Virus record (IMG/VR): IMGVR_UViG_3300025070_000022
Location: 1-64,000 of that record
Length of the DNA: 64,000 nucleotides
From: a virus
Reading direction: 5' to 3' (one strand)
A program made the translations under genes and the position numbers. The notes below the pieces were generated by a model, which did not search any database, was not told the origin of the DNA, and worked only from the letters and a program-made list of their open reading frames with translations. This document shows, piece by piece, positions 1-36,014 of the stretch (within the stretch, counting starts at the first letter, position 1; each line of letters begins with the position of its first letter).

Positions 1-157
1 CAACGATAGGACGAGAGGAAGAATCGTAAATCATCTTAGTCTTCACTGCGAACTTCTTTTCAATCATTTTAATCAGTTCGTCTAAACTTCCCGTCTTTCC
101 AACTATTTCCTCTATTTCATCTAGAGTCATTTCTTTTAGTATGTTTTCCCAAGTCAT
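1..157 (-). CDS. Hypothetical protein with WxxILK N-terminal tag (runs off window edge)
   Basis: Manual translation MTWENILKEMTLDEIEEIVGKTGSLDELIKMIEKKFAVK..., open to base 1; start overlaps stop of upstream ORF (ATGA). Confidence 0.75.
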   Translation of the reverse strand, partial: MTWENILKEMTLDEIEEIVGKTGSLDELIKMIEKKFAVKTKMIYDSSSRPIV

Positions 158-276
158 TTCTTCACTTCCTTAATCTTATTTCCAGTGACAAACTCTTTCT
201 TTGTCTCTTTCTCCGTTTTATCAATCTTCTTTGATTGTTCATCAAACCAAGCATCTAATGTATTACACCGTGTCAT
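154..276 (-). CDS. Small hypothetical protein (40 aa)
   Basis: Manual translation MTRCNTLDAWFDEQSKKIDKTEKETKKEFVTGNKIKEVKK; ATGA overlaps at both ends. Confidence 0.6.
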   Translation of the reverse strand: MTRCNTLDAWFDEQSKKIDKTEKETKKEFVTGNKIKEVKK

Positions 277-1247
277 AGCAACACTTCCTTCCAACTTTTA
301 ATAACCGGACTAACCTTTACACTCATGTTCGACTTCATGTAATCTTTAATCAATTTACGAGTCTTAGCCGGAGTCAACTCGATTGTGAATTCAGTAATGG
401 TCCCTCCTAAGTCGGGAACTTTCATGTATCTAGATAGCATCTTTTGTGCCTTACCTGTAGGTGGAACCTTGAATGATTTACCGGACATTAACCTCATAAC
501 TCTACCTGTACTTACTCCTTCTTCCGTTCTTGCAGTAGAAATAGCACGACCCAATCTCTTTCTAAAATCGGGAATGGTTTGGAGAGTAGCGGCGGGTTTG
601 GAAGTTGTAATCGTAGCAATGTAGTTTTGGTCGTCAATGTCTTCAATTGCTTTATTCAAAACATCAACCAATCCAACAGGAACTAAATTTCCGCCATAAA
701 GGGCTTGATAAATTGGAGGAGTAGCGGTGTTTTCTTTATCGCTAACCCACCCATCTTTTTGTCTATCGGCAGTACCATGCTTCTTAGCGTAGAAAGTAGA
801 AAGGTAGTGTCCGTAGACCTTTTCCATCTCTACACCTCTAGCATAAGCCCCTGTCTGTCGGTTATACTTCTTAGGAATTGAGAATACGATATTTTGAGGA
901 TTCAAACTAGCATCGTCTTTCAACCCTTCAAGGTCATTGACAATTGCTTCTAGGGTTTCAGCATCCTCTTCAAAGAAAATTCCGTTAGCCCTGTCAACTA
1001 ACATCTTCCTAATTCTTCTAAGCATGGTATGTGCGCCGGAATTTCCATCATTAGGAGAACCCCTTCTAGGACTGGTGGCATGGTTTTCAACTGCAAGCAA
1101 TAAAGAGCCTTTCTTCATGCCGGAATTTGCACCTCTGCATTTTTTCTCCCAAGCCTCAAAATCTTTCTTGAATTTGATAACTCCACCAACTGTTTCAATA
1201 ACAGCGTCACCGATGCTGGCAGTATTCTTATTCACATCTTTAGGCAT
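273..1247 (-). CDS. Hypothetical protein (324 aa), ends in SWKEVLL
   Basis: Long ORF tightly packed in minus-strand operon. Confidence 0.8.
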   Translation of the reverse strand: MPKDVNKNTASIGDAVIETVGGVIKFKKDFEAWEKKCRGANSGMKKGSLLLAVENHATSPRRGSPNDGNSGAHTMLRRIRKMLVDRANGIFFEEDAETLEAIVNDLEGLKDDASLNPQNIVFSIPKKYNRQTGAYARGVEMEKVYGHYLSTFYAKKHGTADRQKDGWVSDKENTATPPIYQALYGGNLVPVGLVDVLNKAIEDIDDQNYIATITTSKPAATLQTIPDFRKRLGRAISTARTEEGVSTGRVMRLMSGKSFKVPPTGKAQKMLSRYMKVPDLGGTITEFTIELTPAKTRKLIKDYMKSNMSVKVSPVIKSWKEVLL

Positions 1248-1690
1248 TACTCATCCTTCCTTTTCTTTCTAGTTCGGTATGCGGGTTTGAATAATTTAGC
1301 ATGTGCTGGAGCAGTAGTAGTCACGGCCCCTGCCATTCTCTCAAGGTTTTCACTATTAACATCTCCCTTAGAATTCTGTTCCTTCTTTCGGCCTCTTTGT
1401 GGCTTAGGAGGTAGCCTTCCTTTCTTTGGCTTCTTTCTACGCTTGGGAGGACTAACCTTGGTGTCTTTAAAATTAGGACTGTCTCTTCTTCCAGCAACAA
1501 ATTCACTCATGGCCCATGTTTCTTCTCGGTTGCCGGATTCCCCATGTTTTCGTTCCCATTCTCTTTGTCTGTTTTCTTCTTCTTTACGCCTTTCTTCCCT
1601 TCTTAAGTAAGCATTATTCCTTTGAATTTTTGCTCTCTTAGCATCCATTTCTTTAGGATTATATTCTTTTAGTATATCTTTCCAACCCAT
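1247..1690 (-). CDS. Basic low-complexity protein with WxxILK tag
   Basis: MGWKDILKE start; K/R-rich. Confidence 0.75.
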   Translation of the reverse strand: MGWKDILKEYNPKEMDAKRAKIQRNNAYLRREERRKEEENRQREWERKHGESGNREETWAMSEFVAGRRDSPNFKDTKVSPPKRRKKPKKGRLPPKPQRGRKKEQNSKGDVNSENLERMAGAVTTTAPAHAKLFKPAYRTRKKRKDE

Positions 1691-1691
1691 C

Positions 1692-2150
1692 TTAAATCAC
1701 CGGATACCGATACATGGGTAATTTACTAAGTTCAACATACATGTCTTTATTCATTATATCCTGTACTTGAGAATAAGAAGTCACCTTATCTCCTACCCTA
1801 GCCGCCATTCTTTCTACCTTCTCCCTAGACTTTTCATCTAGTGGATTCAATAATGTAATTCTAGGCTTGCCTCTAGTATGCTTATTCCTCTCTTGTAATA
1901 ATTTTCCAAAAATTCCCTCTCCTGTATGGTCGGGTCTAATGTAGCCATTGCCTACGAAAAAGAATGTTCCCATGTCCTTATAGGAAGTAAAGCCCAAAAC
2001 TTCGCCCTCATCATTTACTTCGCTAACTAGGTTTAGTGGACTTACCTTAGTTGGGTAGCCCTTATCACTAGCAGTTCTAAAATTTGGCATATTCTCCGAA
2101 ACTGTAGATTCGTTTAGAACCTTGACTTCCTTGAGAATATCTTGCCACAT
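1692..2150 (-). CDS. GNAT-family N-acetyltransferase with WxxILK tag
   Basis: MWQDILKE start; YIRPDHTGEGIFGKLL resembles GNAT acetyl-CoA-binding motif A. Confidence 0.65.
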   Translation of the reverse strand: MWQDILKEVKVLNESTVSENMPNFRTASDKGYPTKVSPLNLVSEVNDEGEVLGFTSYKDMGTFFFVGNGYIRPDHTGEGIFGKLLQERNKHTRGKPRITLLNPLDEKSREKVERMAARVGDKVTSYSQVQDIMNKDMYVELSKLPMYRYPVI

Positions 2151-2151
2151 T

Positions 2152-2394
2152 TCAATCCTTCCTCAGTGAATAAAAATAAGTAGGGGATAAGTAAGGTTGC
2201 TTCTTACTTATCCAATCAGCACTGTTTAAAAATCTCCTCAAATTAGCATCTTTGAATCTACCAATACCTCTTTGTGATAATGAAGACTTTATGCCACCAA
2301 AAGAAATTTCATCTACATTTTCTAAAATGTCAGCGACTGCCTTTACTATGGTAGTACGAAGTCCATCGTGAGTTAGAGTATCCTTCCAAGACAT
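2152..2394 (-). CDS. Small protein, possibly winged-helix, with degenerate tag (MSWKDTL)
   Basis: ORF track; operon packing. Confidence 0.65.
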   Translation of the reverse strand: MSWKDTLTHDGLRTTIVKAVADILENVDEISFGGIKSSLSQRGIGRFKDANLRRFLNSADWISKKQPYLSPTYFYSLRKD

Positions 2395-2396
2395 GA

Positions 2397-3164
2397 CTAC
2401 AACCCCAAATTTCTTTCAATGATTGGGACCAATTCTTTGAGGGAGGGGCTAGATGCAATAACCGCATCTTTTTTGCTGATATGAAATTGTCCCCTATGTG
2501 ATTTAACTTTCAAAAAATCTTTACCATAATCTAACTTCAATTCCGGATTGCCCTTTGCTCGGCTAGATATATGACTAGAGTAAATCTCCCCTCCTAGTTT
2601 TTCTTGGAAGTGTTCTAAGAATTGTCTAGGCCCGAAGAATTTCAAAATAGATTTTCTTAACATAGGAAATTTATCTCGGTTTCTTTTAGAAAGGCCAGTA
2701 TCAACATATTGTCTAGCCCTACTTAGAGGTTGTATTTCTCTATCAATTTCGTTAATGGCGGGAACATAATTTACCTTGTCCAAGTACTTATCAATTCTCA
2801 AAATAATAGAAGACATTTCATTTTCCATCTCTTCTGTCACTCCTTCATAGTTTTCCATCATCTCTTGAGCGGCTTCAGGATACTGCTCCTTAATTTGTTC
2901 AGCATCATCCTTTCGCTGTAGTCTCCACTGTGCTTCATCAACAAGAGATTCTAGAGCCTTAAGTTCTTTAATTGCTGCCTCTTTATTTTCTCTTGTAGCC
3001 TTTCTCTTAGCCACACCAGCCTCTCCGCCAGTTTCTTGACTTCTCTGTGTTGTTCTTTCTTTGGCAGTTCTAGTATCTATTGTTGGGCGTGACATTCGCC
3101 TTGGTGCATCCTTCTTATGAGGTGTCCAATTCTTATCTCTTTTGAGAATATTTTCCCAAGACAT
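2397..3164 (-). CDS. Hypothetical protein with WxxILK tag
   Basis: MSWENILKR start chosen at 3164. Confidence 0.8.
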   Translation of the reverse strand: MSWENILKRDKNWTPHKKDAPRRMSRPTIDTRTAKERTTQRSQETGGEAGVAKRKATRENKEAAIKELKALESLVDEAQWRLQRKDDAEQIKEQYPEAAQEMMENYEGVTEEMENEMSSIILRIDKYLDKVNYVPAINEIDREIQPLSRARQYVDTGLSKRNRDKFPMLRKSILKFFGPRQFLEHFQEKLGGEIYSSHISSRAKGNPELKLDYGKDFLKVKSHRGQFHISKKDAVIASSPSLKELVPIIERNLGL

Positions 3165-3166
3165 AA

Positions 3167-3394
3167 TCAAACCTCTGCATAAAACGATTCGCTGTTTGGC
3201 ATATTAACCTGCCTAGAGATAACTTTCAAGGAGCCGCCCATCATTTGTAGGGCGTTCTTGAATAAGGAAATTTCCCTATCCACAATTTCCTTTTCTTCTT
3301 GTGATAGTTTGGAAGTATTGACAGAATTCATAGTCTTCTCCATTTCTCTTAGGAGGGACAGTACTCTCTTTACTTCTGCTTCCATAGTAATCAC
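3167..3394 (-). CDS. Small coiled-coil hypothetical protein
   Basis: ORF track; operon packing. Confidence 0.65.
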   Translation of the reverse strand: MITMEAEVKRVLSLLREMEKTMNSVNTSKLSQEEKEIVDREISLFKNALQMMGGSLKVISRQVNMPNSESFYAEV

Positions 3395-3399
3395 CGTTT

Positions 3400-3753
3400 T
3401 TAATATCCATGCCTTTTATGAGCCTTTTCCATATCGGAGATATATTTTTCTAAAATCTCGATAATTTCTATTTTTCCCATGTTACTTTTAATCTGTGGAG
3501 GACTCATCCCAACCTCCCCTAGCCAAAAATCAACAGACATAAGTTCATTATGAGTTAAACTATTAGGCCTGAAGTTGTCATTTCCCCCTCTTACCTTTAT
3601 ATTATGAATTATTCGTTTTAATCGAGGAATCACCTCTTTTTGTCTTCTAACCATCTTGTCAGTATCATCTTGTAACATTTCTTTTGACGCATATTTTCGC
3701 CCCAATCTTCGGGCTTCTTCCATCTCTATTTTGAGTATGTTTTTCCAAGTCAT
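3400..3753 (-). CDS. Hypothetical protein with WxxILK tag
   Basis: MTWKNILKI, preceded by GGTGATT SD-like site. Confidence 0.75.
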   Translation of the reverse strand: MTWKNILKIEMEEARRLGRKYASKEMLQDDTDKMVRRQKEVIPRLKRIIHNIKVRGGNDNFRPNSLTHNELMSVDFWLGEVGMSPPQIKSNMGKIEIIEILEKYISDMEKAHKRHGY

Positions 3754-3754
3754 G

Positions 3755-4012
3755 TTAATCACCCAATTCTCTAATGCAAGCATCTAAGGATTCTACAAAT
3801 TTTTCAGTAAAGGCATCGGTTTCCATATTTTTATTTACAATTTGAGCCACTTGATTCAATAATTCATAAGCCTTCATGGTATCTTCGTCTTTACCTTTAG
3901 ACCCCTTTCTCTTTTCAGCCTCTCTCTTCATCCGAGGACTGACATTCATAAAAGCAGTCATGTCTTCGGGGTCTTCGTCAAGTATCTTTCTTAGTTCATC
4001 TTTCCAACTCAT
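3755..4012 (-). CDS. Hypothetical protein with tag (MSWKDELRK)
   Basis: Start reassigned to tag ATG at 4012. Confidence 0.75.
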   Translation of the reverse strand: MSWKDELRKILDEDPEDMTAFMNVSPRMKREAEKRKGSKGKDEDTMKAYELLNQVAQIVNKNMETDAFTEKFVESLDACIRELGD

Positions 4013-4013
4013 A

Positions 4014-4337
4014 TCAATCAGTCCTTTTAGTATGATTAAACTTGAAACGGCCACCCATAACTTCCAACTGTTGTGCCATGCCCCCGCCGCTTTCTTTCAT
4101 AAAATCAGTAATTTTTTCCTCTTTATCTTCCAGTTCATTAAGTAGTCGGTCTAGCGTTTTAACAGTCAAAACTTCTGCTAGAATCAAAGATTCTAAGTAA
4201 TTGTCCAATACGCTTTTAATTAGTTTTATATCGTGTGCGCTAGACTCTACCAAGTCTTGATATAATTTCGCTCCCTCTTTGCTACTTTGTCCATATACCG
4301 TTGGGGTAGTCTTTTTTAATTCATCTTTCCAAGTCAT
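4014..4337 (-). CDS. Hypothetical protein with tag (MTWKDELKK)
   Basis: ORF track. Confidence 0.75.
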   Translation of the reverse strand: MTWKDELKKTTPTVYGQSSKEGAKLYQDLVESSAHDIKLIKSVLDNYLESLILAEVLTVKTLDRLLNELEDKEEKITDFMKESGGGMAQQLEVMGGRFKFNHTKRTD

Positions 4338-4347
4338 ATCAATCCAC

Positions 4348-4740
4348 TCACAAATTTCCTTTAAATCTAATTATAGCAGTATTAGGCTCAAAACTTATTT
4401 TCGCTTCTCGTTGATAGATTCTGTTGAATGCCCTAACAAGCCCCTTATCATCATCACCCATTGCACCTTGTATAGCATAAAATATGTCGGGGTTTTCATT
4501 TCTAGTAAAGCGATAAGGGCTATTCCCTAGTTTCTTCATTGCTGGAACTATTCTGTCTCGAACCATCGAAGTAAATTGGTCTTCGGAAAGACCAGTTTGT
4601 TGAGTGTTTTCTCGTTGAGAAAAATTACCGGACATTAGTTCTTGATGCTGTCTCTCTGACTCGTTCTTGCTTCTTTCTTGTTCTTCATAGTAGCCTTCCG
4701 GCATCGGAGGCTCGTTCTTTAGTATATCTTTCCAAGTCAT
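4348..4740 (-). CDS. Hypothetical protein with WxxILK tag
   Basis: MTWKDILKN. Confidence 0.75.
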   Translation of the reverse strand: MTWKDILKNEPPMPEGYYEEQERSKNESERQHQELMSGNFSQRENTQQTGLSEDQFTSMVRDRIVPAMKKLGNSPYRFTRNENPDIFYAIQGAMGDDDKGLVRAFNRIYQREAKISFEPNTAIIRFKGNL

Positions 4741-4742
4741 AA

Positions 4743-5456
4743 TCATCTTCCGCCGATTCTTTCAGCAATCTTTTCTACAGGAAAACTAGACTGCGTTTGA
4801 GCATCCCGAACATAAGAGTCGGGATTATTGAGGTACTCACTAGCATTGAAATCCCGATGCTTGTAAGTTCCAGCCAATGCTTCTTTCAATAAATCTCTCA
4901 TGTGCATTGCTACCTTTCGGTATTCTGTCGTCACATTCAATGGCTCATTAAGTTGAAACGAAGCCAACTTCCTTGCATTGTCAAAATTAATAAAACCAAA
5001 GTTAGGTCTTTCACTACCCCGCTTCATCATAGCGGCAATTAGTTTCTCATCGTAATCTTGCGGTACAGTTGCTTGTTCGTTTTTCAATTCCTGTTTCTGT
5101 ACGGCGTTTTTATTCGTAACAAGTATTGCATTATTGCCTTGCTTTTCTGCCTTATATTCTAATTTATTTAAATGAGTAACGGCTAGTTCTAAAAATTCAT
5201 CATTGTCCATTCCGAGTGACCCCGTATAAAACATTAGACCGTCCTTGCCTTTTGGATTGTTGGCCAACTTAATACCGAATTGCCCTACTCTTTGAAATTC
5301 TGGGTCATTTCTAAATTCATTAATTATCTTATTTACCTGCTGACCTACTTCGGATATGTTTCTGTTTTTAATCTTGAGTTTGCCCTTATCCATTTGCCTT
5401 CTAATCTTGCTCTCACTACGGAACGGCCCTTTCACTATAATGTCTTCCCATGTCAT
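4743..5456 (-). CDS. Hypothetical protein with tag (MTWEDIIVK)
   Basis: Start reassigned to 5456, downstream of GGAGA SD-like site. Confidence 0.75.
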   Translation of the reverse strand: MTWEDIIVKGPFRSESKIRRQMDKGKLKIKNRNISEVGQQVNKIINEFRNDPEFQRVGQFGIKLANNPKGKDGLMFYTGSLGMDNDEFLELAVTHLNKLEYKAEKQGNNAILVTNKNAVQKQELKNEQATVPQDYDEKLIAAMMKRGSERPNFGFINFDNARKLASFQLNEPLNVTTEYRKVAMHMRDLLKEALAGTYKHRDFNASEYLNNPDSYVRDAQTQSSFPVEKIAERIGGR

Positions 5457-6154: not shown

Positions 6155-6508
6155 TCACATGCAAGCACTAAAATCATTCAAATGAATGGGTGTACCGTCC
6201 CATTGTCGAAAGGTATCGTTGTTCACTAAATACCATAGCCAATTCCTTTGCACTAGCCTAACGCTAGTATTGGAACGCCAAAGAATACCACTTAGGCGTT
6301 CCTTTGTTGTGTTGCTAGTCCAGCCACCTGCACTAATCATAATGTTGTTAGTGCAACCAGTAGGCTTCCAAGCGATTCGGTTTCCGTGAAGTAGTAGTTC
6401 AGTTATCATCAAGTGCCCCGAAGGAACTTGCCTAACTTCTGTATTATCTACCTTCATAGGACGGTCTGTAAAAAATGCCCTTGTAGTCACTTCTGTTATC
6501 AGTCTCAT
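6155..6508 (-). CDS. Hypothetical phage protein
   Basis: LLHGNRIA...GWTSNTTKERL motif typical of small phage proteins; start at ATGA overlap. Confidence 0.7.
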   Translation of the reverse strand: MRLITEVTTRAFFTDRPMKVDNTEVRQVPSGHLMITELLLHGNRIAWKPTGCTNNIMISAGGWTSNTTKERLSGILWRSNTSVRLVQRNWLWYLVNNDTFRQWDGTPIHLNDFSACM

Positions 6509-6783
6509 TGTTCTTCCTCCTTGTTGTTTTCGTCCCATTCTTTTCGTCCACTCCATTCGTTATCTTCTTCCCAAATTGGTACTAGTGATGTTCTTAGAAA
6601 CCATGTAGTAGAAACAGTGTCACTACCAACCTTTTCGCATACTTCAAAATAGACAGTAGTAGGAGAGGCTTGGGTATAGGAACCGTTAGGGTAGGCTTTT
6701 CCTAGAATGGAGAAGTCGCTAAAACCTACGCTGTGGTGTGTAGTCTCGTAAGTAGTGGATGGTCGTTCTAATATGTCGCTCAT
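6505..6783 (-). CDS. Hypothetical protein
   Basis: ATGA-coupled ORF. Confidence 0.7.
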   Translation of the reverse strand: MSDILERPSTTYETTHHSVGFSDFSILGKAYPNGSYTQASPTTVYFEVCEKVGSDTVSTTWFLRTSLVPIWEEDNEWSGRKEWDENNKEEEQ

Positions 6784-13438: not shown

Positions 13439-13701
13439 GGGTTGGTGACAAAGTGGCTAACATTAGAACTATCCAAAGATTAGAAAAAATACTAAAGAAT
13501 GGTAGTAAAAACACAGCAGAAATACTAGATGAGTATAAAAATCGCTGGCCGAAGGAGTCTTCGGGGGGTAGTAAGATTGGTAATCTTCTATCTCGACACA
13601 AACAATTTAAAAAAATTGGAACCGAAACTGTAACGGCTGAATTCAGTCAATACAGTTACCCCGTCAATGTATGGATATTGACAAAAGAGCATATGGTGTA
13701 A
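13435..13701 (+). CDS. Winged-helix-like DNA-binding protein (paralog family)
   Basis: L.NGSKNT.EI ... IGNLLSRHKQF.KIG ... VWIL pattern shared with 27328-28045 genes. Confidence 0.65.
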   Translation: MRVGDKVANIRTIQRLEKILKNGSKNTAEILDEYKNRWPKESSGGSKIGNLLSRHKQFKKIGTETVTAEFSQYSYPVNVWILTKEHMV

Positions 13702-13761
13702 TGGATAGCATACTGGCCTTCTAAGCCGGTGATACGGGTTCGACTCCTGTTATGCTCGCCA
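13687..13761 (+). tRNA. tRNA-Arg(UCU), CCA encoded
   Basis: GAGCATA/TATGCTC acceptor, CTGGC-CTTCTAA-GCCGG anticodon arm, TTCGACT T-loop. Confidence 0.92.
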
Positions 13762-13763
13762 AT

Positions 13764-13846
13764 GTCGGAGTGGTGGAGTAGGTCAAACACGCAGGGCTTA
13801 AACTCCTGTCCTAAATGGTTCGCAGGTTCAAATCCTGCCTCCGACA
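13764..13846 (+). tRNA. tRNA-Leu(UAA)
   Basis: GTCGGAG/CTCCGAC acceptor, CAGGG-CTTAAAC-TCCTG, long variable arm, TTCAAAT T-loop. Confidence 0.9.
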
Positions 13847-13851
13847 CCTAC

Positions 13852-13926
13852 GGAACAATAGCATAGTTTGGTTAATGCTCTCGGCTCATAACCGAGTGAC
13901 CACAGGTTCAAATCCTGTTTGTTCCA
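13852..13926 (+). tRNA. tRNA with CAU anticodon, probably Ile2 (or elongator Met)
   Basis: GGAACAA/TTGTTCC acceptor, CTCGG-CTCATAA-CCGAG arm resembling archaeal tRNA-Ile2; lacks initiator features. Confidence 0.88.
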
Positions 13927-13998
13927 CTAATTCAAATAGTGTAGTAGTGCTATCAATGACTACCGAGAGGGTGCGATGCCCAATAATGAGGAATAAAA

Positions 13999-16898: not shown

Positions 16899-18188
16899 AT
16901 GCAAAGAACAATTAGATTTAATCGAGACATTACTCATGGTGGGCCGCTAACTTGTACGGTCCACTTTGAATACGAAGGGCAAATAATACAATGGACTCAG
17001 CACCAAGTAGGGTCTGTCTTCTCTTTCGACGCCAATGCTTTAGGGTCTGCTGACCCTATCTTAGAACAATGCACCTCCGCCTTTTATAGTACTCTAAAAG
17101 GAGCATATTCTAGAACCCAATGGTATAGAACTACAGCCCATTTGCGTAGAACTTTAGTGGCTGACGATATTATGTTTATCGTATCTTTCCCTACTTCCGG
17201 CCATACTGCTGAAGTCATAATCTCTAAGAAAGGTAGTTCCTATTCTATTAATGGAATTACTATGGCTAGAAAGCAAATAGCCCCTGTCTTGGCCCGTATT
17301 CTATTGGACCTTAATGCTAAGAGCAAGAGAAAGGTAATGACCTATAGAGATTGTAGAAATGTTGTCACTTCTGCGATTACAGTTCCCGAAGACATTCGAT
17401 ATGTACTAACTTCCCGACTACCTTACACTTACTATAGAGAAGGTAACACTGTCCAAGTGAGGCTAAAGGTTATGCAAATATCGGATGATGATTATGCCAT
17501 TGAGATTAGTTCTAATGTATGGGGTAAAATATCTTCAAAGAACTTATTGACTCTCATAGGATTCTATCGACACGGGAAGAAAGTCGGTAATTGGAAGTTC
17601 CTAAGCCCCAAGACTTTGTTTGAACGGCTAGTTGGTAGAGAACCTACAGACTCGGAAGTGAAACTAATGCATGCCTTCCTAGAACAAAACCGCTCGGAGA
17701 AGTTAGTACAAGAGAGAGCAATGACTTTGTTAGATGATTTGCTAAAACAATACCCTACTAGAGTCATTAGAAACGATTGTGCAGAAATGATTAGAATAAT
17801 CGTTTTGGGTAAATCTTGTGATTGGTTGCTAACTGGTAGCAAAGAATCTTTGAATCGAGTTACGATAGGCCCACAAGCAGTGGCGACTAGAACCATGTTG
17901 AATGAAACTTCTTCGGAGGGTGAAGGCTTTACTCAAATGAAGTGGGGTAGTAGTATTTGTATTAATACTGGAGGGAAGAACCCTTCCCTTGGCGACCAAT
18001 TTGCATCTAGAATTCTTTCCCTATTGAATGATACTATTACAATAGGTAGGGTTAGTACTCTAAGTTCTTACCTACACAAAGAGAAACCTAGGTTGGTTTT
18101 TGAGAATTTGAAAACCCGTCACTTTGCTAGTGATTTTAATGGAGATGTAAATAATGAATTGCTTAGAATGCCAGTCGAAGAAGTTTAG
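16899..18188 (+). CDS. Hypothetical protein; C-terminal domain is a candidate E2/UBC-like fold
   Basis: 429 aa; WGSSICINTG recalls the E2 G-x-IC catalytic-Cys segment (weak). Confidence 0.55.
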   Translation: MQRTIRFNRDITHGGPLTCTVHFEYEGQIIQWTQHQVGSVFSFDANALGSADPILEQCTSAFYSTLKGAYSRTQWYRTTAHLRRTLVADDIMFIVSFPTSGHTAEVIISKKGSSYSINGITMARKQIAPVLARILLDLNAKSKRKVMTYRDCRNVVTSAITVPEDIRYVLTSRLPYTYYREGNTVQVRLKVMQISDDDYAIEISSNVWGKISSKNLLTLIGFYRHGKKVGNWKFLSPKTLFERLVGREPTDSEVKLMHAFLEQNRSEKLVQERAMTLLDDLLKQYPTRVIRNDCAEMIRIIVLGKSCDWLLTGSKESLNRVTIGPQAVATRTMLNETSSEGEGFTQMKWGSSICINTGGKNPSLGDQFASRILSLLNDTITIGRVSTLSSYLHKEKPRLVFENLKTRHFASDFNGDVNNELLRMPVEEV

Positions 18189-19020
18189 TTTTGATGAGAA
18201 TTTAGGTGAAATGATTTGTGTAGATTGTGGCTTAGTTATGGTCACAGAACCCTTTGAGCAAGGCGTGTATTTACAAGATAACCAAGGCTCCATAATTAGG
18301 GAGAGATGGTCTTCCAATCTACATGAAATGGGACTACAAACAATAAAGAAAAAGACCATATCCTTCGCTCAAATTGAAAACAAAGCAGTGTATAAAGGAG
18401 TTTCAATGTGTAGGCTATTAATGGCTTCTCTAAAGATACCAAGGACTTCTGTCGTCTTTACTTCAGTCGAGGAACTGTATTTGTCATTATACCGAAGACA
18501 TACCTTCACTACAATACCTCTTGAAGATAGGGCGGCGGCACTAGTCTACTATTCTTTGAAGAATGAAGCACTGCCTTTCACGCTAAAAGAAGTGTGTGCA
18601 GAATTCGAGTGTAATAAGAGACTCGTATTTAAGTTGGCTAGGAAAATAGCAAAGGAAGAAAACAATACGGGAGTATTCCTAATAAAAGAATGTAGACCAT
18701 TTGCTGAAAAATATGCTATGTTGTTAGTAGAAGAACTAACCCACTACCCTTCTTATCTAAGAAAGGTTTCGCAGTTATCAATTTATTTTGATAACTTACT
18801 CTCTAAATCTAGTGAGAACATAAAACCAAGCACTCCAGCCGCCTACTGTTCTATTGTGGCTACTATGGAGAACATGAACATAACGAACAAGAAAATAGAA
18901 TCGGTTAGTGGTATTGGGTATGATGCCATTGGCCGAGAAGCCAAGAGACTTCTAAAAATAATTAATACCAATAAAAAACAAATAAAAGGAAAGGGAATAG
19001 AATGCCTAGAAAAATACTAA
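18154..19020 (+). CDS. tfb: Transcription factor B (TFIIB/TFB) homolog
   Basis: CLECQS...DENLGEMICVDCGLV Zn ribbon; AAALVYYS and PAAYCSIV cyclin-repeat helices. Confidence 0.85.
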   Translation: MNCLECQSKKFSFDENLGEMICVDCGLVMVTEPFEQGVYLQDNQGSIIRERWSSNLHEMGLQTIKKKTISFAQIENKAVYKGVSMCRLLMASLKIPRTSVVFTSVEELYLSLYRRHTFTTIPLEDRAAALVYYSLKNEALPFTLKEVCAEFECNKRLVFKLARKIAKEENNTGVFLIKECRPFAEKYAMLLVEELTHYPSYLRKVSQLSIYFDNLLSKSSENIKPSTPAAYCSIVATMENMNITNKKIESVSGIGYDAIGREAKRLLKIINTNKKQIKGKGIECLEKY

Positions 19021-19595
19021 TAATCGGAGCCGGTGGAATTGGGAGTTATCTCATTGACACCTTGAACAACCTAACAGGAAATGGAAGTTACGAGCGGGAA
19101 CTCTACGAGATTACCGTAAGCGACCCCGACACTGTAGAAGAAAAGAATGTGACATACCAACGCTTTACAACAGATAATGTTGGAAAGAACAAAGCGTTTG
19201 TTATGAAGTCTAACTATGAACAAGTAAAGATTGGAAACAAATATCCAATTTTAGTTGACGACCAATTGAAAGGATATGACCTAGTGGTTTGTTGCGTTGA
19301 TAATTTGAACACACGACGCATGCTATACAAGGCAAATGTAGAAGAAGTAAAGTGGCTAGACCTTCGTTCACAAGGAAGAAACGCCGCAATGATTTCTTAC
19401 TTAGCAGAACCAAACACCTATGATTCGCTATTGGCTGGTCCGGATGGTTCTTTCTCATGTCAAGGAGATTCTTGGGATGGTAGCAAGGAAGGTATTCATT
19501 TCATGCATGCTGTAATTGCTAGTATAGGCGCACAGTGGATACAACGCTGGTTTGTTGGAGAGAGTGTTAATGCGTTTATGGTGGTGAATGTATGA
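19002..19595 (+). CDS. ThiF/MoeB/E1-like activating enzyme
   Basis: IIGAGGIGS, DPDTVEEKN..Q, K in GKNKA, DLVVCCVDN..R; candidate catalytic Cys in SFSCQ. Confidence 0.88.
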   Translation: MPRKILIIGAGGIGSYLIDTLNNLTGNGSYERELYEITVSDPDTVEEKNVTYQRFTTDNVGKNKAFVMKSNYEQVKIGNKYPILVDDQLKGYDLVVCCVDNLNTRRMLYKANVEEVKWLDLRSQGRNAAMISYLAEPNTYDSLLAGPDGSFSCQGDSWDGSKEGIHFMHAVIASIGAQWIQRWFVGESVNAFMVVNV

Positions 19596-19849
19596 AGTGT
19601 TGTGTTTGTAAAGGCGACATACAAGAGCATAGTCACAACGGTAAAGTCTATTGGACGGAAGGGCATAACGCACAACCTTTGGTAGATGGCCGTTGCTGTG
19701 ACGATTGTAATAATTATGTGGTCGGATTTAGAATATTCTGTTTCACCAATCAATCTTTAAATAAAGAAGAATGGGGAATACAAAAACTACGATACATACA
19801 AGCGGCAGTTCAAGAGCAACTAATTAGAAGTAAGGAGGAAGAGGAATGA
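19592..19849 (+). CDS. Small Zn-finger protein
   Basis: CCVC...GHNAQP...GRCCDDCN. Confidence 0.7.
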   Translation: MKCCVCKGDIQEHSHNGKVYWTEGHNAQPLVDGRCCDDCNNYVVGFRIFCFTNQSLNKEEWGIQKLRYIQAAVQEQLIRSKEEEE

Positions 19850-20436
19850 GTAGAAGCGGAGATTGGTACATAAAAGTACACGGAGAAGACGACGATAGAC
19901 ATGACTGGGGTGAAGCAGAAGCAGACCACGAAGCGCACTGTCAAGGTCTAATCGAGAAATTGATTAGAGATGGTTTTGATGGCGATTGGTCAGCAGTAGC
20001 ATTTCACAATTCTATTTGGGAGGCATCTACTGAAATTCTTAATGGATTGGAAGTACAAGTTGTTGTAGATGGTAAAGATAATCTACACATTTCTTTTGGT
20101 ACTGCTGGTTTTGTTTCCTTCAAGGTTGACCCTGTTGGAATGACTCTACCGATTAAGTGCTGGATTCATACTCACCCTTTCGGCTCTGCTTACTTTAGTG
20201 GTACTGACTGGAATACAGTTGGCAAGTGGGAGCCTTTGATGCACAATGCTATTGTTCTAGGTGGCATAGGTCACTATGGCATTTGGAATAATAAGCACCC
20301 CAAACATCTTGACATCTATCGTAATTTTGAATACGACAGAAGGCAACATAAGCGAGAATACAAACCTGCTGAAATTAAAACGACTATCAATGAAATGCTA
20401 CTAGAGAAGAATTGGGATAGAGGTGAAGAAGAATGA
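19846..20436 (+). CDS. JAB/MPN+ (JAMM) metalloprotease
   Basis: E(VQV)...WIHTHPFGSAYFSGTD = E-Xn-HxH-X7-S-X2-D. Confidence 0.88.
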   Translation: MSRSGDWYIKVHGEDDDRHDWGEAEADHEAHCQGLIEKLIRDGFDGDWSAVAFHNSIWEASTEILNGLEVQVVVDGKDNLHISFGTAGFVSFKVDPVGMTLPIKCWIHTHPFGSAYFSGTDWNTVGKWEPLMHNAIVLGGIGHYGIWNNKHPKHLDIYRNFEYDRRQHKREYKPAEIKTTINEMLLEKNWDRGEEE

Positions 20437-21636: not shown

Positions 21637-23171
21637 TTCTAAACGGTAAAGAAGTTGGAGAGAAATTGCTAGAAGGTATTAGTTTAGTCGCTGATACTGT
21701 AGCCCCAACATTCGGGCCACAGGCCAAGACTGTAATCCTACAAGGTAATCCTCCAGTCGTAATCAATGACGGCGTTACTATCACTAAGTATGTGCGTTCC
21801 GAAGACCCATATGCTCAGTTGGGAGTCCAACTTGTTCAAGACTTAGCATCAAAGGCTCAATCAAAAGCCGGTGACGGAACAACCACTGCTTGTATTTTGG
21901 CTAGAGCATTATGCAAATCACTACATGAATTTAGAGATGCTAGAAGCATCCACGAATGGAGAACATACCTAACAGATGTTAGAGATGGTCTTCTATCTTA
22001 TTTGGATGATAGTAGTATTCCTGTCACCGACGATGATATTCAAAAGATTGCTACTATTGCGGCCAACAATGATGAAAAACTAGGCGAACTTATTGCTGAG
22101 GTTTTCAAAGCAGTTGGTAGAAACGGAGTAGTTTCTGTCGAAGAAAGTTTAGACTTGAATACTTCCTTTGAGATTAAGGAAGGACTAGAATTAGAGAGTG
22201 GTTACATTAGCCACTTGTTTGCTAATCGAGATAACGGAGATTGTGTTTTAGAGAATCCACTCATCTTATCCACTAACAAAATCATTAGAAAGTTCCAAGA
22301 CATTTTACCTGCTTGTGAATATGCTTCACAGAAAGGAAGACCCCTACTACTAGTTTGTAGGGGACTACAGAACATGGCTTTACAGAATGTCTTGTTGAAT
22401 GTAGCCCAAGGTAGACTCGATGTAGGAGTTATCGAAACTCCCAATTATGGAGATGCACAATTGGATGAACTCAAAGACTTGATAGCCGTTGTTGGTGGTA
22501 AAGCCTATTCCGATGAAGCAGACGACGACCTAAGAATAGTCAACGAGAATACCCTAGGTAGTTGTTCTAAAGTTGTTATTGATAAAGTCAAGACTACTAT
22601 TGTTGGAGGTAACGGAGGAGAGGCAGTTGTTGAAAGAATAGAAGCCTTGAGAAAACTTCACGAATTGGGTACGAATGAATTTGTGAAGGAAAGCATCTCT
22701 AAGAGAATCTCTAGGCTTAGTGGAGGTATCGCAGTAATCCGTGTGGGTGCTGGTTCATCCGTTGAAATGAGAGATACTAAAGAAAGACTTGATGATGCAC
22801 TCAACGCAACTAAGGCCGCTCTAGACGGCGGCTATATTGTAGGTGGTGGACTTACTATCCTAAAGTTCCAAACCCATTGGCCCCAAGAAAAACCTGTTGA
22901 CTATAGAATGTCAATGGCAACACTTCTATCTCCAATAGATACGCTCATGGGTAATAGTGAGTTTCCTCTAGCCGAATATGATATTGTAATTAATAGATGG
23001 ATTGAGGATAAAGAAGGCTGGCAAGGATTCAATGCTAAGGAAGTCACCATTAGTGATTTATTGATTGATGGAATCATTGACCCAACTCTTGTAACAAAGA
23101 GTAGTGTGTCTGCGGCCTTCTCTATTGCCATGATGTTTTTAACAACCGATGTAGCAGTTCTTCTTGAGTGA
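21633..23171 (+). CDS. groEL: Group I chaperonin GroEL
   Basis: TFGP, INDGVTI, AGDGTTTA, KERLDDALNATKAA, GIIDP. Confidence 0.95.
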   Translation: MILNGKEVGEKLLEGISLVADTVAPTFGPQAKTVILQGNPPVVINDGVTITKYVRSEDPYAQLGVQLVQDLASKAQSKAGDGTTTACILARALCKSLHEFRDARSIHEWRTYLTDVRDGLLSYLDDSSIPVTDDDIQKIATIAANNDEKLGELIAEVFKAVGRNGVVSVEESLDLNTSFEIKEGLELESGYISHLFANRDNGDCVLENPLILSTNKIIRKFQDILPACEYASQKGRPLLLVCRGLQNMALQNVLLNVAQGRLDVGVIETPNYGDAQLDELKDLIAVVGGKAYSDEADDDLRIVNENTLGSCSKVVIDKVKTTIVGGNGGEAVVERIEALRKLHELGTNEFVKESISKRISRLSGGIAVIRVGAGSSVEMRDTKERLDDALNATKAALDGGYIVGGGLTILKFQTHWPQEKPVDYRMSMATLLSPIDTLMGNSEFPLAEYDIVINRWIEDKEGWQGFNAKEVTISDLLIDGIIDPTLVTKSSVSAAFSIAMMFLTTDVAVLLE

Positions 23172-24129: not shown

Positions 24130-24361
24130 GTGGGTTGAACTAGCAAGTTATCTTTGGTTTCTTAAAAAAATGAAACAGGGAAGACACGAACACATTGAGG
24201 AATTAATAAAACTCGTAAATGCTAGAATATTTACTGCTGGAATAGAAGAAGTAAGGGTGGAAGATAATGACGATGAGCCACCTAGCAAGACTTTGCGAAA
24301 CGATGCAGAAAAAAACATCAGCACAACAGACTCGTCTAATTCTTCAAGCGTTTGGTTCTAA
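24116..24361 (+). CDS. Hypothetical protein (overlaps ligase 5' end)
   Basis: ORF track. Confidence 0.45.
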   Translation: MKKSEWVELASYLWFLKKMKQGRHEHIEELIKLVNARIFTAGIEEVRVEDNDDEPPSKTLRNDAEKNISTTDSSNSSSVWF

Positions 24362-25772
24362 GCACATTCAACCACTACAACTTTTAAAGATACTAACTCT
24401 AGATTTAGAAAGTTCTAATATTGGTAAGCACAAAACAAAGAAGTGGATTTGTGAACACTTTGGTATATTTATAGAAGAGTTGGAAATATACGGAGATGAT
24501 TTGGGAAGAGCCGTATTCAATCTAGAAAGAGATAAACAGAAGACAGCCGACTATAGCCTAAATATGGTTATGCGACTCTTAGAAATGGATTCTAGACAGA
24601 AAGGTTCCTTTGAATTATTCTCCGAAGTTCTAGAAAGCCTATCTTCTATTGAAAGAAAATGGTTCATTTCTTTTTGGGTTAGAGAGCCTAAACTAAAGAT
24701 GGACAGAAAAAGAATCGTAGTCAATACCCTAAGCAAGTATTTTAATTTAGAACGCTCTTTAGTAGAAAAAGATTCCAAGATGCACGAACTAGATACTATG
24801 TATCATGCCTATTCTAATGATAGGAAATTAAGAAATGAATCAACTCATGGGTTGTTCATACCACCTATGTCAGCAAAGTCAAATACTAAGTGGAGCAAGT
24901 ATATACAACCTACTAATTCTATTTGTGAATACAGGTATGGTGGCATAAAAATACAGATTCATAAGAAAAAGAATAATATTATCTTCTTCAACAGAAAGGG
25001 CAAAATACTCACCTTGCCTAAGAGAATTAAGAGTTACATAGCCGACTACCCATCCGACTTCATTTTGGAGGCTGAACTCTATTGTGTAGACTCAGATGAA
25101 AAACCGCTAGACTACTATGAAGTGTTGAAGGTACTTCACAACAACCATGCTCAAACACAGGACTCTCTAAGGTATGTAATATTAGACTGCCTATCAAAGA
25201 ACGGAAGATGTATGATGAATGCGCCCTTCTCGGATAGGCTCAAGGCACTAGAAGAACTACCATGTCCTCCAACTAGGTCGGAAGAAAACGAGCCGTCTAA
25301 GGCGTTCTACAACCAAGCAATTAGTGATGGGTTCGATGGCATCCTCATTAGAGATTTAGATAGTAAGTACTATCCCAATGAAAATAGCGTAGCCGTCGTC
25401 ATACACTCTCCTCCTAGAATAGACTTGAACTTGGTAGTTGTAGGGGCAAAGGTAGATGACAAGAATGGCTTCTCAAGTTTTGAAGTGGCCTGTAGAAAGG
25501 AAAACGGATATGTTTCACTTGGTTATGTTTCTGGACTTTCTACAATAAATCACAAATTACTTTCTAATATGCTAAGGAAGATAGTTTCTTCGTTTAAGAA
25601 TAAAAAGTATTCTTTCTTACCTAGAGTAGTTTTGCATGTGAAAGCAGAAATAATAATGAAAAAGGATGATAAATACTCCCTAAGACTATCTAGAATACAT
25701 GCAATAAGAACTGATAAGTATGCGATAGACTCTAGTACAATTCAAGAAGTTGATGCCATAGGGGGGTTTTAA
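24267..25772 (+). CDS. ATP-dependent DNA ligase homolog with degenerate catalytic motifs
   Basis: DBD-NTase-OB layout; motif I reads EYRYGG instead of EYKYDG; ILEAEL; DGILIRD. Confidence 0.8.
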   Translation: MTMSHLARLCETMQKKTSAQQTRLILQAFGSKHIQPLQLLKILTLDLESSNIGKHKTKKWICEHFGIFIEELEIYGDDLGRAVFNLERDKQKTADYSLNMVMRLLEMDSRQKGSFELFSEVLESLSSIERKWFISFWVREPKLKMDRKRIVVNTLSKYFNLERSLVEKDSKMHELDTMYHAYSNDRKLRNESTHGLFIPPMSAKSNTKWSKYIQPTNSICEYRYGGIKIQIHKKKNNIIFFNRKGKILTLPKRIKSYIADYPSDFILEAELYCVDSDEKPLDYYEVLKVLHNNHAQTQDSLRYVILDCLSKNGRCMMNAPFSDRLKALEELPCPPTRSEENEPSKAFYNQAISDGFDGILIRDLDSKYYPNENSVAVVIHSPPRIDLNLVVVGAKVDDKNGFSSFEVACRKENGYVSLGYVSGLSTINHKLLSNMLRKIVSSFKNKKYSFLPRVVLHVKAEIIMKKDDKYSLRLSRIHAIRTDKYAIDSSTIQEVDAIGGF

Positions 25773-32335: not shown

Positions 32336-34081
32336 ATGATAATCTCACATAATAATTCAAATATTTACATATCGTGGAGAGAAAATGGTACTAAGCACGA
32401 TTCTACTATTCCGTTTCGCCCATACTTTTTTGTGGAAGAGACTAGTAAGGAACCACCTACTTACCAGCCTAGTAAGTACATTACTAGGGAAATAGAATAC
32501 GAGAGAGGCGATTGGGTTAATCTTGAAGGTACTCGATTGAAGAAAGTCTATGCAGAAATGCCGGAAGACTTGAGGAATTTGAAGAGTTCCTTTTCTAGAA
32601 CTTACGAGGCTGATGTACCTTACCCCTACAGATATTGTGTAGACCGATTAGAAGAAATCAAAGAGTACGATATGCGTAAGTGGTATTGGGATATGGAATG
32701 GCAACAAGGTGGAGAACACCATGATAAGATTACTACTATTGTAATGTATGATAATTACGATAAGGAATACTATCAATGGGTTTGGTTTCCCGACCAAGAA
32801 CCCTATGATGGATTCAAAGCCTCCACTGATAAAGCACAACATTTATCGGTCTTTAATACAGAAGAAGAAATGATTGAATCTTTCTTGACTACAATGATAG
32901 AGAAAGACCCCGACATGTTAATTGCATGGTTTGGTAATTGGGCCGACCTTCCTAAGTTGTTTTCTAGATGTGCCTTCTACGATATTGACCCTAGCGTTAT
33001 TTCTCCTTTGGGAGTTGTTGATGGTATAAAGGTCAAAGACGGTAAGGTAAGATTCACTAAAGAAGAGAATGGCTATCACGCTACTGCTCAACCCATCCGA
33101 GGTAGGATTACACTAAACTTGGACATGGCTTTTGAAAGACAATGGAATGATGCACAAAAAGGCACACTACCTAGTCTCTCTCTAGATTATGTTTCTACTG
33201 CATTATTCGGTGAAGGTAAATCTAAGGAAACTAAATTTGAAGATGCTAACGAGTTTTATCGTAGAGGTTGGCTAGAAGACACTCAAGCCTACTTGAAGTA
33301 TGCTTTGATAGATGTAGAATTACTAGTAAAGATTGATGAAACTAACTTCTGTAGTGAAGCCATTCTTTCTTTACAGCGATTACTAATTGCTCCTTTCGAT
33401 GCTTGCTTCTTTGCTTCTAACATGGGTTCAATCTACTTTATGAGAAACGCTTGGTGGAAAGCCCCAACGGGAGAGAAGCCTAAGTTCAAAGTCTGCGATA
33501 AGTGCAATCATAAGAATCCAAACGAGAAGACACTAAGAGAGTGTAAGAAGTGCGGAGCAAGCCTATCTTATTCGGGTGCTATGATTTACAATCCTACTGA
33601 CGAAGGTACTAACGGGTTGCATTACAATGTAGCCGCTTTTGACTTTGCTGGTCTTTATCCTAGTATGATTATTGCTAGGAATATCTCGTTTGAAACTCTT
33701 ACAGAAGAGCCAACACTATTCAGTGCTGACTTGAATACTCCACAGAATCTACAGCCCGTAGCAGAAGACTACGAGAAAGACATGCGCTATTTCAAGACTG
33801 ACGAATTGGGACTATTGCCTCGCTCTCTTATCGACTTGAAAGAGTTGAGAGGCGAGTACAAGAAGTACATGAAAGAGGCTAGGAAGGCTGGAGATAAGGA
33901 GGCTGTTGTTAAGTGGAACAACAATCAAATGGCTGTAAAGCGTTTGATGGCTTCCTTCTATGGTATCCTTGCCTTCAAGGGATTCGGTTGGGCGAATGTA
34001 GACCTAGCCGCTAGCATTACTGCTAGTGCAAGAGAGGCTATTCGTAAGGCCGCATTTACAGCAAGGGAGATGGAAGGATGA
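32336..34081 (+). CDS. polB: Family B DNA polymerase, N-terminal part (3'-5' exo, motifs A and B)
   Basis: WDME, YALID, DFAGLYPS, K.LMASFYG; CDKC...CKKC insertion; ends before motif C. Confidence 0.93.
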   Translation: MIISHNNSNIYISWRENGTKHDSTIPFRPYFFVEETSKEPPTYQPSKYITREIEYERGDWVNLEGTRLKKVYAEMPEDLRNLKSSFSRTYEADVPYPYRYCVDRLEEIKEYDMRKWYWDMEWQQGGEHHDKITTIVMYDNYDKEYYQWVWFPDQEPYDGFKASTDKAQHLSVFNTEEEMIESFLTTMIEKDPDMLIAWFGNWADLPKLFSRCAFYDIDPSVISPLGVVDGIKVKDGKVRFTKEENGYHATAQPIRGRITLNLDMAFERQWNDAQKGTLPSLSLDYVSTALFGEGKSKETKFEDANEFYRRGWLEDTQAYLKYALIDVELLVKIDETNFCSEAILSLQRLLIAPFDACFFASNMGSIYFMRNAWWKAPTGEKPKFKVCDKCNHKNPNEKTLRECKKCGASLSYSGAMIYNPTDEGTNGLHYNVAAFDFAGLYPSMIIARNISFETLTEEPTLFSADLNTPQNLQPVAEDYEKDMRYFKTDELGLLPRSLIDLKELRGEYKKYMKEARKAGDKEAVVKWNNNQMAVKRLMASFYGILAFKGFGWANVDLAASITASAREAIRKAAFTAREMEG

Positions 34082-34955: not shown

Positions 34956-35129
34956 ATTTACCTTACTGGTATTTAACAGAACTAACTCATAGTCCAGTTG
35001 GAGAATTACTATATTTTACGATAGTTTTGATTCCGTTTAGACTTGCTTTAAAATATTTATACAAGAGTTGGAAAAGTAATGATAGACAACCTAGTTTTTG
35101 GGATGATTACGATACGGAGGTTCGATAAT

Positions 35130-36014
35130 ATGGAAGTAGTTTATGGACACACAGACTCAATCTATGTCAAGGTAGATTCTATAGAGTCGGCCTTTTCATC
35201 TCTCGAAAAAATAAATGAAGAAGTTAGAACTATCTTTCCTAATTTACTAGGCCTAGAAGAACACCCTGTTATTCTAGAATTTGAGAAATACTTTGAATCA
35301 TTAGGTGTAGGAATTACAAAAAACAGAAACGCTGGTTTAATTTCTTGGGAAGATGGAGTTTGGTTAGACGAGCCTAAATTTACTCTAACAGGATTTACTT
35401 CTAAGAGAATTTCCGAAACAACAACGATGAAAGAAGTTCAAACAGTGGCCCTCAATATGTGGGTTTCCGGTAAATCGGAACTAGAAATAGTCGATTACGC
35501 TAAGTCTGTTTATGCCAAAGTCCTTTATGGGGAAATCAATTACCGTGAAGTAGCAAAAAGAACTAGACTAAAGAAAGAGAGATTCCAAGTCAAATGTACC
35601 TGTAATAGAAAGTACGACATTAGAGAAATATCTTGGACTGATGGTGAGTTCTTTTGTGGAAAGTGTGCAAAACACCCTTCTAAGTTCCTAACAGCCAAGG
35701 GAAAGAAGCCGACTATAAGCGAAGGCATTGTAGGTGTATTGTATTCCATGCAAGAAAGAAACCTTACCTTTGAAGACTCCTATGTATTCTTAAGAATAAG
35801 ACCAGTTGGATTCTTTACTGACCCCTTAACCGGAGTTCGTAAAGAAGCCACTTATGTTTCCGGAAATACTTTTTCCGAGATAGAGGGTTTTGAACCCGAT
35901 TGGCCCCACTACGCCGAACAAGTAGTGAAAAAAGTACAACCCATTTTCGATGCTATGGGTTGGGATACTAAACAAATTAAAACTAAGCAACGAACTTTTG
36001 ATGAATGGTGGTAA
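35130..36014 (+). CDS. polB: Family B DNA polymerase, C-terminal part (motif C, thumb)
   Basis: MEVVYGHTDS, LEFEK, KNRNAG, Cys-cluster insertion, PIP box QRTFDEWW; GGAGG SD. Confidence 0.92.
   Translation: MEVVYGHTDSIYVKVDSIESAFSSLEKINEEVRTIFPNLLGLEEHPVILEFEKYFESLGVGITKNRNAGLISWEDGVWLDEPKFTLTGFTSKRISETTTMKEVQTVALNMWVSGKSELEIVDYAKSVYAKVLYGEINYREVAKRTRLKKERFQVKCTCNRKYDIREISWTDGEFFCGKCAKHPSKFLTAKGKKPTISEGIVGVLYSMQERNLTFEDSYVFLRIRPVGFFTDPLTGVRKEATYVSGNTFSEIEGFEPDWPHYAEQVVKKVQPIFDAMGWDTKQIKTKQRTFDEWW

Follow-up and report, generated by a model that had tools for sequence, protein, structure and literature searches.

Why should a dozen otherwise unrelated viral proteins open with almost the same eight residues? 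The question is raised by positions 1 to 5,456 of the IMG/VR virus record IMGVR_UViG_3300025070_000022. A sequence-only reading of the window (the whole stretch of DNA analysed, 64,000 nucleotides (nt) long and comprising bases 1-64000 of one 89,940-bp contig) had listed twelve copies of a short terminal tag there, and had proposed that it is a head-packaging signal of an archaeal virus, recruiting a variable set of cargo proteins and possibly cleaved after its Lys. All 12 of these sites are present on the minus strand, 11 at N-termini and one at a C-terminus, and when the whole contig is scanned the count is larger than claimed. The tag, M-(x)-W-x-x-[IV]-[LI]-K, opens 26 of 137 open reading frame (ORF) calls, together with one more ORF that has a displaced TTG start; that is, about one gene in five carries it. 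The calls are crude, being the longest non-overlapping ORFs of at least 40 amino acids (aa), 80 of them on the minus and 57 on the plus strand, and some are surely spurious. The 26 tagged proteins, 3,178 residues combined, are all encoded on the minus strand, which is also the strand of the head and tail genes, and the scan found no tagged ORF in the plus-strand replication block at 9517-42147. Chance is ruled out as the source of this frequency: the strict pattern M.?W..[IV][LI]K has 21 matches in the six-frame translation against a mean of 0.12 and a maximum of 2 in 100 base shuffles, and the 26 N-terminal matches compare with a mean of 0.12 and a maximum of 2 in 200 shuffles of the residues within each ORF.

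By gene content the contig is magrovirus-like, since its gene set matches that described for the magroviruses, abundant tailed viruses which infect uncultured marine group II archaea and whose genomes, about 100 kb long, are terminally redundant (PMC5434244, available text). Pfam matches on the plus strand comprise a UvrD-type helicase, a TFIIB zinc ribbon, ThiF, a DNA ligase, RFC, a PD-(D/E)XK nuclease, ERCC4, PolB in two ORFs, a weak JAB match and a thermosome-like chaperonin fragment, and the tail-tube protein is matched on the minus strand. The head genes lie beyond the window (Table 1) and include an S78 prohead protease with a long C-terminal extension, which we call the protease-scaffold protein. 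Tagged genes occupy sites inside the head module and immediately before it: seven (77556-79725) stand between the terminase and portal genes and one (73361-73714) between portal and protease, and several of those in the head module overlap or abut their neighbours. The run at 1-5456 consists of tightly packed minus-strand ORFs, ten of which start with M-(x)-W-x-x-[IVET]-[LI]-[KRTV]. Every N-terminal tag listed by the sequence-only reading has an ATG one or two codons 5' of the W codon and a Shine-Dalgarno-like GGAGG/GGTGA stretch upstream.

The conservation of the tag is at the protein level. Across 304 distinct tag-coding stretches, drawn from the contig and 80 related loci, the usage of Ile, Leu and Lys codons is close to that of the genome as a whole, with each of the six Leu codons represented. 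Pairwise codon differences were counted in 11 orthologous families of at least five members, excluding the largest cluster, a chain linked through low-complexity matches; common ancestry means that the pairs are not independent. At the Leu position there are 809 synonymous against 44 non-synonymous differences and at the Lys position 491 against 52, as compared with 34 against 707 at the first x position and 192 against 638 at the second. The start form also alternates between M-W and M-x-W among orthologues. The earlier remark that the codons vary and that the protein is what is conserved is thus borne out, and these counts speak against a purely nucleotide-level conservation, the outcome which that reading had itself named as fatal to its proposal.

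The bodies behind the tag are as dissimilar as had been claimed. Comparing the 26 tagged proteins with the tag removed gives 325 pairs, of which only 2 show a relationship at E<0.01, and one of these is a terminal-redundancy duplicate. Counting those of relatives, bodies with a match belong to unrelated families - PAP2-type phosphatase (1e-11), pentapeptide-repeat (2e-10), phrog_7595 (3e-23) and phrog_17747 (4e-8) - and the tag, with a short and often Lys-rich linker, precedes the domain, which occupies residues 19-101 in the case of phrog_7595 and residues 25-74 in that of phrog_17747. Nearly all tagged proteins are without a match in Pfam and PHROGs, and the ESM Atlas gave no usable match for the 237-aa and 255-aa tagged proteins. 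Lengths range from about 50 to more than 790 residues. The tag, being charged and amphipathic, does not resemble a secretion or membrane signal peptide; a membrane-like segment occurs in 11 of 103 untagged ORFs but in none of the 26 tagged proteins and in only 1 of the 109 tagged families. Among the tagged proteins of relatives are a soluble PAP2-type phosphatase, in which the motifs PSGH and SR...H...D can be made out by eye, and a pentapeptide-repeat protein (L032 784-1359, L052 1666-2421).

Sequence comparison also indicates that a split-off gene fragment has gained the tag. The large protein encoded after the portal exists in three states, namely as an untagged ORF of 743-858 aa, as a tagged ORF of 794 aa, and, in the present genome, as a 506-aa ORF plus a tagged ORF of 117 aa. 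The body of the 117-aa protein corresponds to the last ~100 residues of the untagged 743-858-aa protein, which belongs to another group (45-51% identity, E 1e-26 to 1e-30), and in a third lineage the whole 794-aa protein is tagged at its own N-terminus.

The tag is widespread among relatives. We collected loci around the portal gene, taking the best 80 of 378 matches (76-94% portal identity), and 72 of the 80 carry at least one tagged ORF; 326 of their 329 tagged ORFs are on the portal strand. Single-linkage BLAST clustering sorts these ORFs into 114 clusters; 68 are singletons, about six of which are noise from the loose pattern. W stands at position 3 in 242 of the 1,401 distinct ORF products of these loci, 20 times its background frequency, and Lys is nearly invariant (341 of 355 tags), with no preference at the residue that follows it. 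Five other records, reached through scaffolds 50-54% identical and representing other magrovirus groups, have 7-13 pattern matches each, always on one strand, and a reversed control pattern has none in the same five records. A set of 78 loci yields 126 tags on the strand of the scaffold gene and none on the opposite strand, and in a complete 95,639-bp record with a 99-bp exact end repeat 21 of 121 ORFs are tagged, all on the structural strand.

A lineage whose scaffold is 45% identical (loci L163-L236, found via P0009) gave no match to the DNA tag pattern in five records of 86-107 kb. The notion that this sister lineage is free of the tag was rejected, as its proteins show a variant form, A-W-x-[LIV]-L-K, beginning a few residues after the start. 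Of the 681 distinct ORF products encoded on the plus strand less than 10 kb from the protease, 6 have this form, and it occurs once more at a C-terminus. The capsid protein of the same lineage reads S-E-L-L-K-A-D about 30 residues from its N-terminus. With a still more distant scaffold (P0012) as query, no locus was found in the viral collection.

Where else does the motif occur? The sequence-only reading had suggested a motif search over the genome and its relatives. An 8-mer profile built from 221 tags of relatives, none of them from this genome, was scored on 26,613 non-N-terminal ORF positions (leading matches in Table 1). The end of the protease-scaffold protein, which reads A-D-M-S-W-S-D-I-H-K-A-V-G-G-N-I-stop, is the second-best true non-N-terminal site, after that in a 75-aa head-module protein. 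The scaffold-end motif is present in 51 of 56 close relatives, the remaining five being cut by the ends of their loci, and of 150 distant protease or protease-scaffold representatives 24 have W-x-[DE]-[IVL] within their final 30 residues, against 18 of 2,199 other 30-residue windows. In the complete second genome the 75-aa-type protein and the scaffold protein rank 6 and 7 of 28,810 positions, with 6.5 and 4.8 bits. The tag thus probably imitates the conserved C-terminal end of the protease-scaffold protein. Sequence searches against solved structures gave nothing significant for the protease-scaffold or the capsid protein. An internal MWLSVLK in the capsid protein was considered as a further tag and discarded as a coincidence: it lies in an invariant core stretch, and most relatives have L in place of M.

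The one C-terminal copy in the original dozen belongs to a 324-aa protein. All 8 homologues (43-99% identity) retain its motif, KSW[KRQ][DE][VLM]L, with K317, S318, W319 and L323 invariant, and because this invariance extends down to 43% identity the C-terminal motif appears to be functional rather than a scar. In the monomer model the tail of the protein (residues 308-324) has low confidence and forms a short helix at residues 319-322.

In tailed phages, it is with their C-terminal ends that scaffold proteins hold the capsid protein. With phage 80alpha and CpmB, the capsid targeting sequence (CTS) of T4 and DarB of P1 as precedents, we read the tag as a copy of the scaffold end, that is, as a portable terminal docking peptide which would mimic the capsid-binding end of the scaffold and load variable cargo into proheads in the manner of the T4 CTS. 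We give this reading a probability of roughly 0.6. In M-(S/T/N)-W-x-(D/E/N)-(I/V)-L-K, the W, I/V and L would share one face of a short helix, after which come the invariant Lys and often a Lys-rich linker, and the tag would act at a free protein end, in most cases the N-terminal one but the C-terminal one in a few families. Tagged proteins would be made together with the head proteins and, during prohead formation, would bind the site of the scaffold end or co-assemble with that end; they would thereby be enclosed in the prohead and exit with the DNA at infection. A large, soluble cargo set with fast turnover is what would be expected of proteins acting first in the host cell. More tentatively, and with odds that we place somewhat below even, the system may be general and open-ended, such that any soluble protein gaining a copy of the scaffold end at either terminus is loaded into the head and delivered with the DNA to marine group II archaea. 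That the Lys in addition marks a cut by the S78 prohead protease is more doubtful again. Contigs of four marine RNA libraries cover mainly capsid and scaffold genes and some tagged genes (Table 1); such contigs are no sure sign of transcription and carry no information on strand, level or timing.

The earlier proposal is supported in part. Its main element, a head-packaging signal with variable cargo, fits a tag that is conserved as protein, portable, terminal, confined to the structural strand, attached to soluble bodies and similar to the scaffold end; its other part, the cut after Lys, has a single capsid-protein motif as its basis and has to contend with a C-terminal form that has no Lys. 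Several observations weigh against even the main part. The scaffold end has H or E at the conserved position where tags have L, and in the second genome it reaches only the 4.8 bits given above. That genome also has tag-like internal matches at residue 114 of a 250-residue and residue 348 of a 395-residue product, which a purely terminal model does not predict unless these ORF calls are fusions. Four loci of one related group have no tagged genes within 10 kb of the protease, and three of these, scanned as whole records, have 7-12 tagged genes elsewhere. ILK-like tripeptides are common. Isoelectric point (pI) does not discriminate, exceeding 9 in 11 of 26 tagged against 14 of 51 untagged proteins (p = 0.18), and monomer models have low mean predicted local distance difference test (pLDDT) scores, at 59.2 for the 324-aa protein (9 sequences) and 40.0 for a tagged 133-aa family (17 sequences). 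The main tagged cluster spans the genome ends, here from 5456 to 1 and from 89776 to 87584 and likewise in the complete 95,639-bp record (82734-94321 and 1626 onward), and some phages keep early host-takeover genes at their genome ends. Finally, a cargo of 26-27 species would greatly exceed that of T4, for which the available text of PMC3012670 names only a few internal proteins.

The alternative that survives best, unlikely as we consider it, is that the tag docks to some other shared partner - a thermosome-like chaperonin, a ThiF/JAB ubiquitin-like system or a host hub - and so gathers small viral proteins at one machine. It has in its favour that the tag, in the manner of a short linear motif, can stand at either end of a protein, and that a chaperonin fragment, ThiF and a weak JAB match are among the Pfam matches of this genome. 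Such a partner would, however, leave three things unexplained: the position of the best non-N-terminal matches, at the ends of the scaffold and of a head-module protein; the confinement of the tag to the structural strand; and its gain by a fragment split from the post-portal protein. The candidate components lie in the replication block, where the ORFs at 19002-20436 and 22374-23171 (plus strand) include a ThiF-like E1 (8e-16), a weak JAB-like match and the thermosome-like chaperonin fragment (2e-18).

The near-invariant Lys allows a second alternative, in which the peptide is mainly a pro-peptide or cleavage signal for the S78 prohead protease or some other protease, keeping proteins inactive or timing their activation and playing no part in capsid addressing. 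In 50 of 50 relatives the capsid protein has N-x-[LIVM]-L-K-[QTAS] at a distance of 23-28 residues from the N-terminus, and on the basis of this motif cleavage after Lys is possible. The excess of synonymous differences at the Lys codon points the same way, as does the variant-tag lineage, in which tags read A-W-x-[LIV]-L-K-A-D and so share L-K-A-D with the capsid protein. Against cleavage counts the C-terminal form KSWKEVLL-stop, which lacks a Lys at the cut place and would leave nothing to remove, and the residue after the Lys shows no preference. Furthermore, a prohead protease acts inside the prohead, so its substrate must still get there. As an account of the whole function we thus find the pro-peptide improbable, more so than another docking partner. 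Two candidate cut sites in the protease itself, F-x-I-L-K (residues 12-17) and FDILK (residues 167-172), were rejected: distant S78 homologues keep equivalent strands, so these ILK sites are probably strands of the fold.

Could the tagged genes instead be one old multigene family, with bodies diverged beyond recognition and only the N-terminus retained by inheritance? Local duplication does occur, as in the weakly related pair of tagged ORFs at 4743-5456 and 88977-89396 (39.5% identity over 43 aa), and another genome has a run of paralogues that share ILKNIQI. The near-total lack of relatedness among the 325 pairs is not that of a paralogue family, however, and the four distinct body families, the spread of lengths, the motif at C-termini and the acquisition of the tag by a fragment of a larger untagged protein make common descent very improbable. 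Least credible of all is a DNA- or RNA-level signal, whether a translation-start enhancer or a short homology for cassette swapping, for although a cassette at the contig ends has its borders at gene starts (a 106-nt version holding one untagged ORF, a 796-nt version holding two tagged genes) and ATA and CTA are somewhat over-used in the tags of this genome, the 304 stretches have genome-like codon use with all six Leu codons, Leu and Lys stay fixed despite abundant synonymous differences, and the motif is found at C-termini as well.

Table 1. Positions of tagged ORFs, their neighbours, head genes and other features, followed by the leading non-N-terminal matches of the tag profile. Plain ranges are window coordinates; those beyond the window are marked as contig coordinates.
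Feature	Position	Strand	Remark
Tagged ORF MTWENILKEMTL... (MTWENILK)	1..157	-	W codon 151; cut by contig start; full 81-aa copy at contig 88721-88966
Untagged ORF, 40 aa	154..276	-	at the other contig end two tagged genes fill the same place
324-aa protein, C-terminal motif KSWKEVLL-stop	273..1247	-	motif codons about 276-299
Tagged ORF MGWKDILK, 147 aa	1247..1690	-	W codon 1684; very basic, pI 10.5
Tagged ORF MWQDILK, 152 aa	1692..2150	-	W codon 2147
Tagged ORF MSWKDTLT, 80 aa	2152..2394	-	W codon 2388; degenerate tag
Tagged ORF MSWENILK, 255 aa	2397..3164	-	W codon 3158
Untagged ORF, 72 aa	3167..3385	-	within cluster
Tagged ORF MTWKNILK, 117 aa	3400..3753	-	W codon 3747
Tagged ORF MSWKDELR, 85 aa	3755..4012	-	W codon 4006
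Tagged ORF MTWKDELK, 107 aa	4014..4337	-	W codon 4331
Tagged ORF MTWKDILK, 130 aa	4348..4740	-	W codon 4734
Tagged ORF MTWEDIIVK, 237 aa	4743..5456	-	W codon 5450; first gene of cluster
Tagged ORF MWKKILK, 168 aa	59297..59803	-	W codon 59800; between structural-strand genes 59805-61109 and 59104-59295
Capsid protein	contig 67612-68955	-	beyond window
S78 prohead protease with long C-terminal extension (protease-scaffold)	contig 68966-70141	-	beyond window
Portal	contig 75854-77497	-	beyond window
Large terminase	contig 81448-82872	-	beyond window
Post-portal protein, here	contig 73361-75234	-	one of the three states
Post-portal protein, other states	L140 4159-6666; G004 16995-19379		
RNA-library contigs on tagged genes	L001 12743-13726, 18168-18373, 19429-19993		
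Profile rank 1: displaced N-terminal tag			TTG start; 16.1 bits
Profile rank 2: MSWNDIEK in 75-aa head-module protein	contig 73141-73368		6 residues from end; 14.4 bits
Profile rank 3: MSWSDIHK in protease-scaffold protein			6 residues from end; 14.1 bits
Profile rank 4: internal site in tagged 255-aa ORF	2397-3164		residue 168; 9.9 bits
Profile ranks 5-6: KSWKEVLL-stop of 324-aa protein			two copies; 8.7 bits

Some features of the contig deserve mention in their own right. Upstream of the ORF at 4743..5456 there are ~470 bp without a called ORF, the next crude call beginning at 5926; an untagged 133-aa ORF at 6155-6556 (minus strand) matches Pfam Kyano_Gp96 (1e-12), a family named after cyanophage proteins. 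The contig ends repeat one another, 1-165 matching 88810-88975 at 97.6% and 272-440 matching 89772-89940 at 98.2%, and between these repeats lie the two alternative segments described above, with the untagged ORF of 40 aa in the shorter. Either terminal redundancy or a mixture of strains accounts for this arrangement, in which the borders of the exchanged cassette coincide exactly with gene starts. On the plus strand, 13687-13927 holds a row of three tRNA genes (Arg-TCT, Leu-TAA, Met-CAT). The family B DNA polymerase is split between 32336-34081 and 35079-36014 (plus strand), ~1 kb apart with small opposite-strand ORFs in between. An 828-aa protein with an ATP-dependent DNA ligase domain (1e-27) is encoded on the minus strand between the portal and prohead protease genes (contig 70179-72665, L001 10179-12665), in addition to the ligase of the replication module at 24267-25772.

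To our knowledge, capsid cargo targeting has so far been described only in phages and encapsulins, and the function of most magrovirus genes is not known. We found no description of the magrovirus tag in the open-access literature (supplements were outside the search), and the words 'N-terminal' and 'motif' are absent from the available text of the founding magrovirus paper (PMC5434244). If our preferred reading of the tag as a capsid address is correct, one rule would cover a fifth of the genes, and many hypothetical proteins would become virion-delivered effectors. On the more tentative, open-ended reading, each virion would deliver a large and rapidly reshuffled effector arsenal, made up of roughly one fifth of the virus's genes. 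Known capsid-cargo systems would then all be far narrower, and none of them would come from an archaeal virus. The tag peptide, with its two candidate binding partners, would also be a handle for experiments that need no cultured host, and an eight-residue address that works at either protein end could serve for loading proteins into HK97-type shells.

How does such a system compare with those already known? Encapsulin cargo-loading peptides are likewise short terminal peptides, docking varied cargo inside an HK97-fold shell. Encapsulins, in contrast to the present case, are cellular compartments and usually have one or a few cargo types.

A similar arrangement is known from T4, whose internal proteins (IPI-III, Alt) are diverse and have the short N-terminal CTS alone in common (PMC3012670, PMC9024508; available texts). 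In both viruses the corresponding genes are dispersed through the head module and its surroundings, and the cargo changes fast. The T4 peptide is an address to the assembling prohead (PMC3012670, PMC9024508), and the same role is here proposed for the magrovirus tag. Unlike the T4 CTS, the magrovirus tag belongs to a virus of an archaeal host with an S78-family protease, occurs on 26-27 genes per genome and in 114 clusters among relatives, is found at C-termini as well, and copies the scaffold's own end.

In P1, a reporter carrying the first 30 residues of DarB ends up in capsids, and this N-terminal stretch suffices for capsid entry and delivery with the DNA (PMC9024508, available text). The likeness lies in the use of an N-terminal stretch; however, the Dar proteins are reported there to be without a common consensus, whereas the magrovirus consensus is sharp and present on a fifth of the genes.

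A precedent for imitation of a scaffold end comes from 80alpha, in which the scaffold ends C-terminally in a helix-and-hook that bears a conserved RIIK motif and attaches to the N-arm of the capsid protein; an unrelated protein, CpmB of the satellite SaPI1, has the same end and competes for that site (PMC5644958, available text). As in that pair, a peptide on other proteins resembles the end of the scaffold, capsid binding being known in the case of 80alpha. There, however, a single competitor redirects capsid size, whereas in the magroviruses dozens of unrelated proteins carry the peptide, mostly at their N-termini. What is new relative to the T4 CTS and to 80alpha/SaPI1 is thus the domain of the host, the scale, the use of both termini and the copying of the scaffold's own end.

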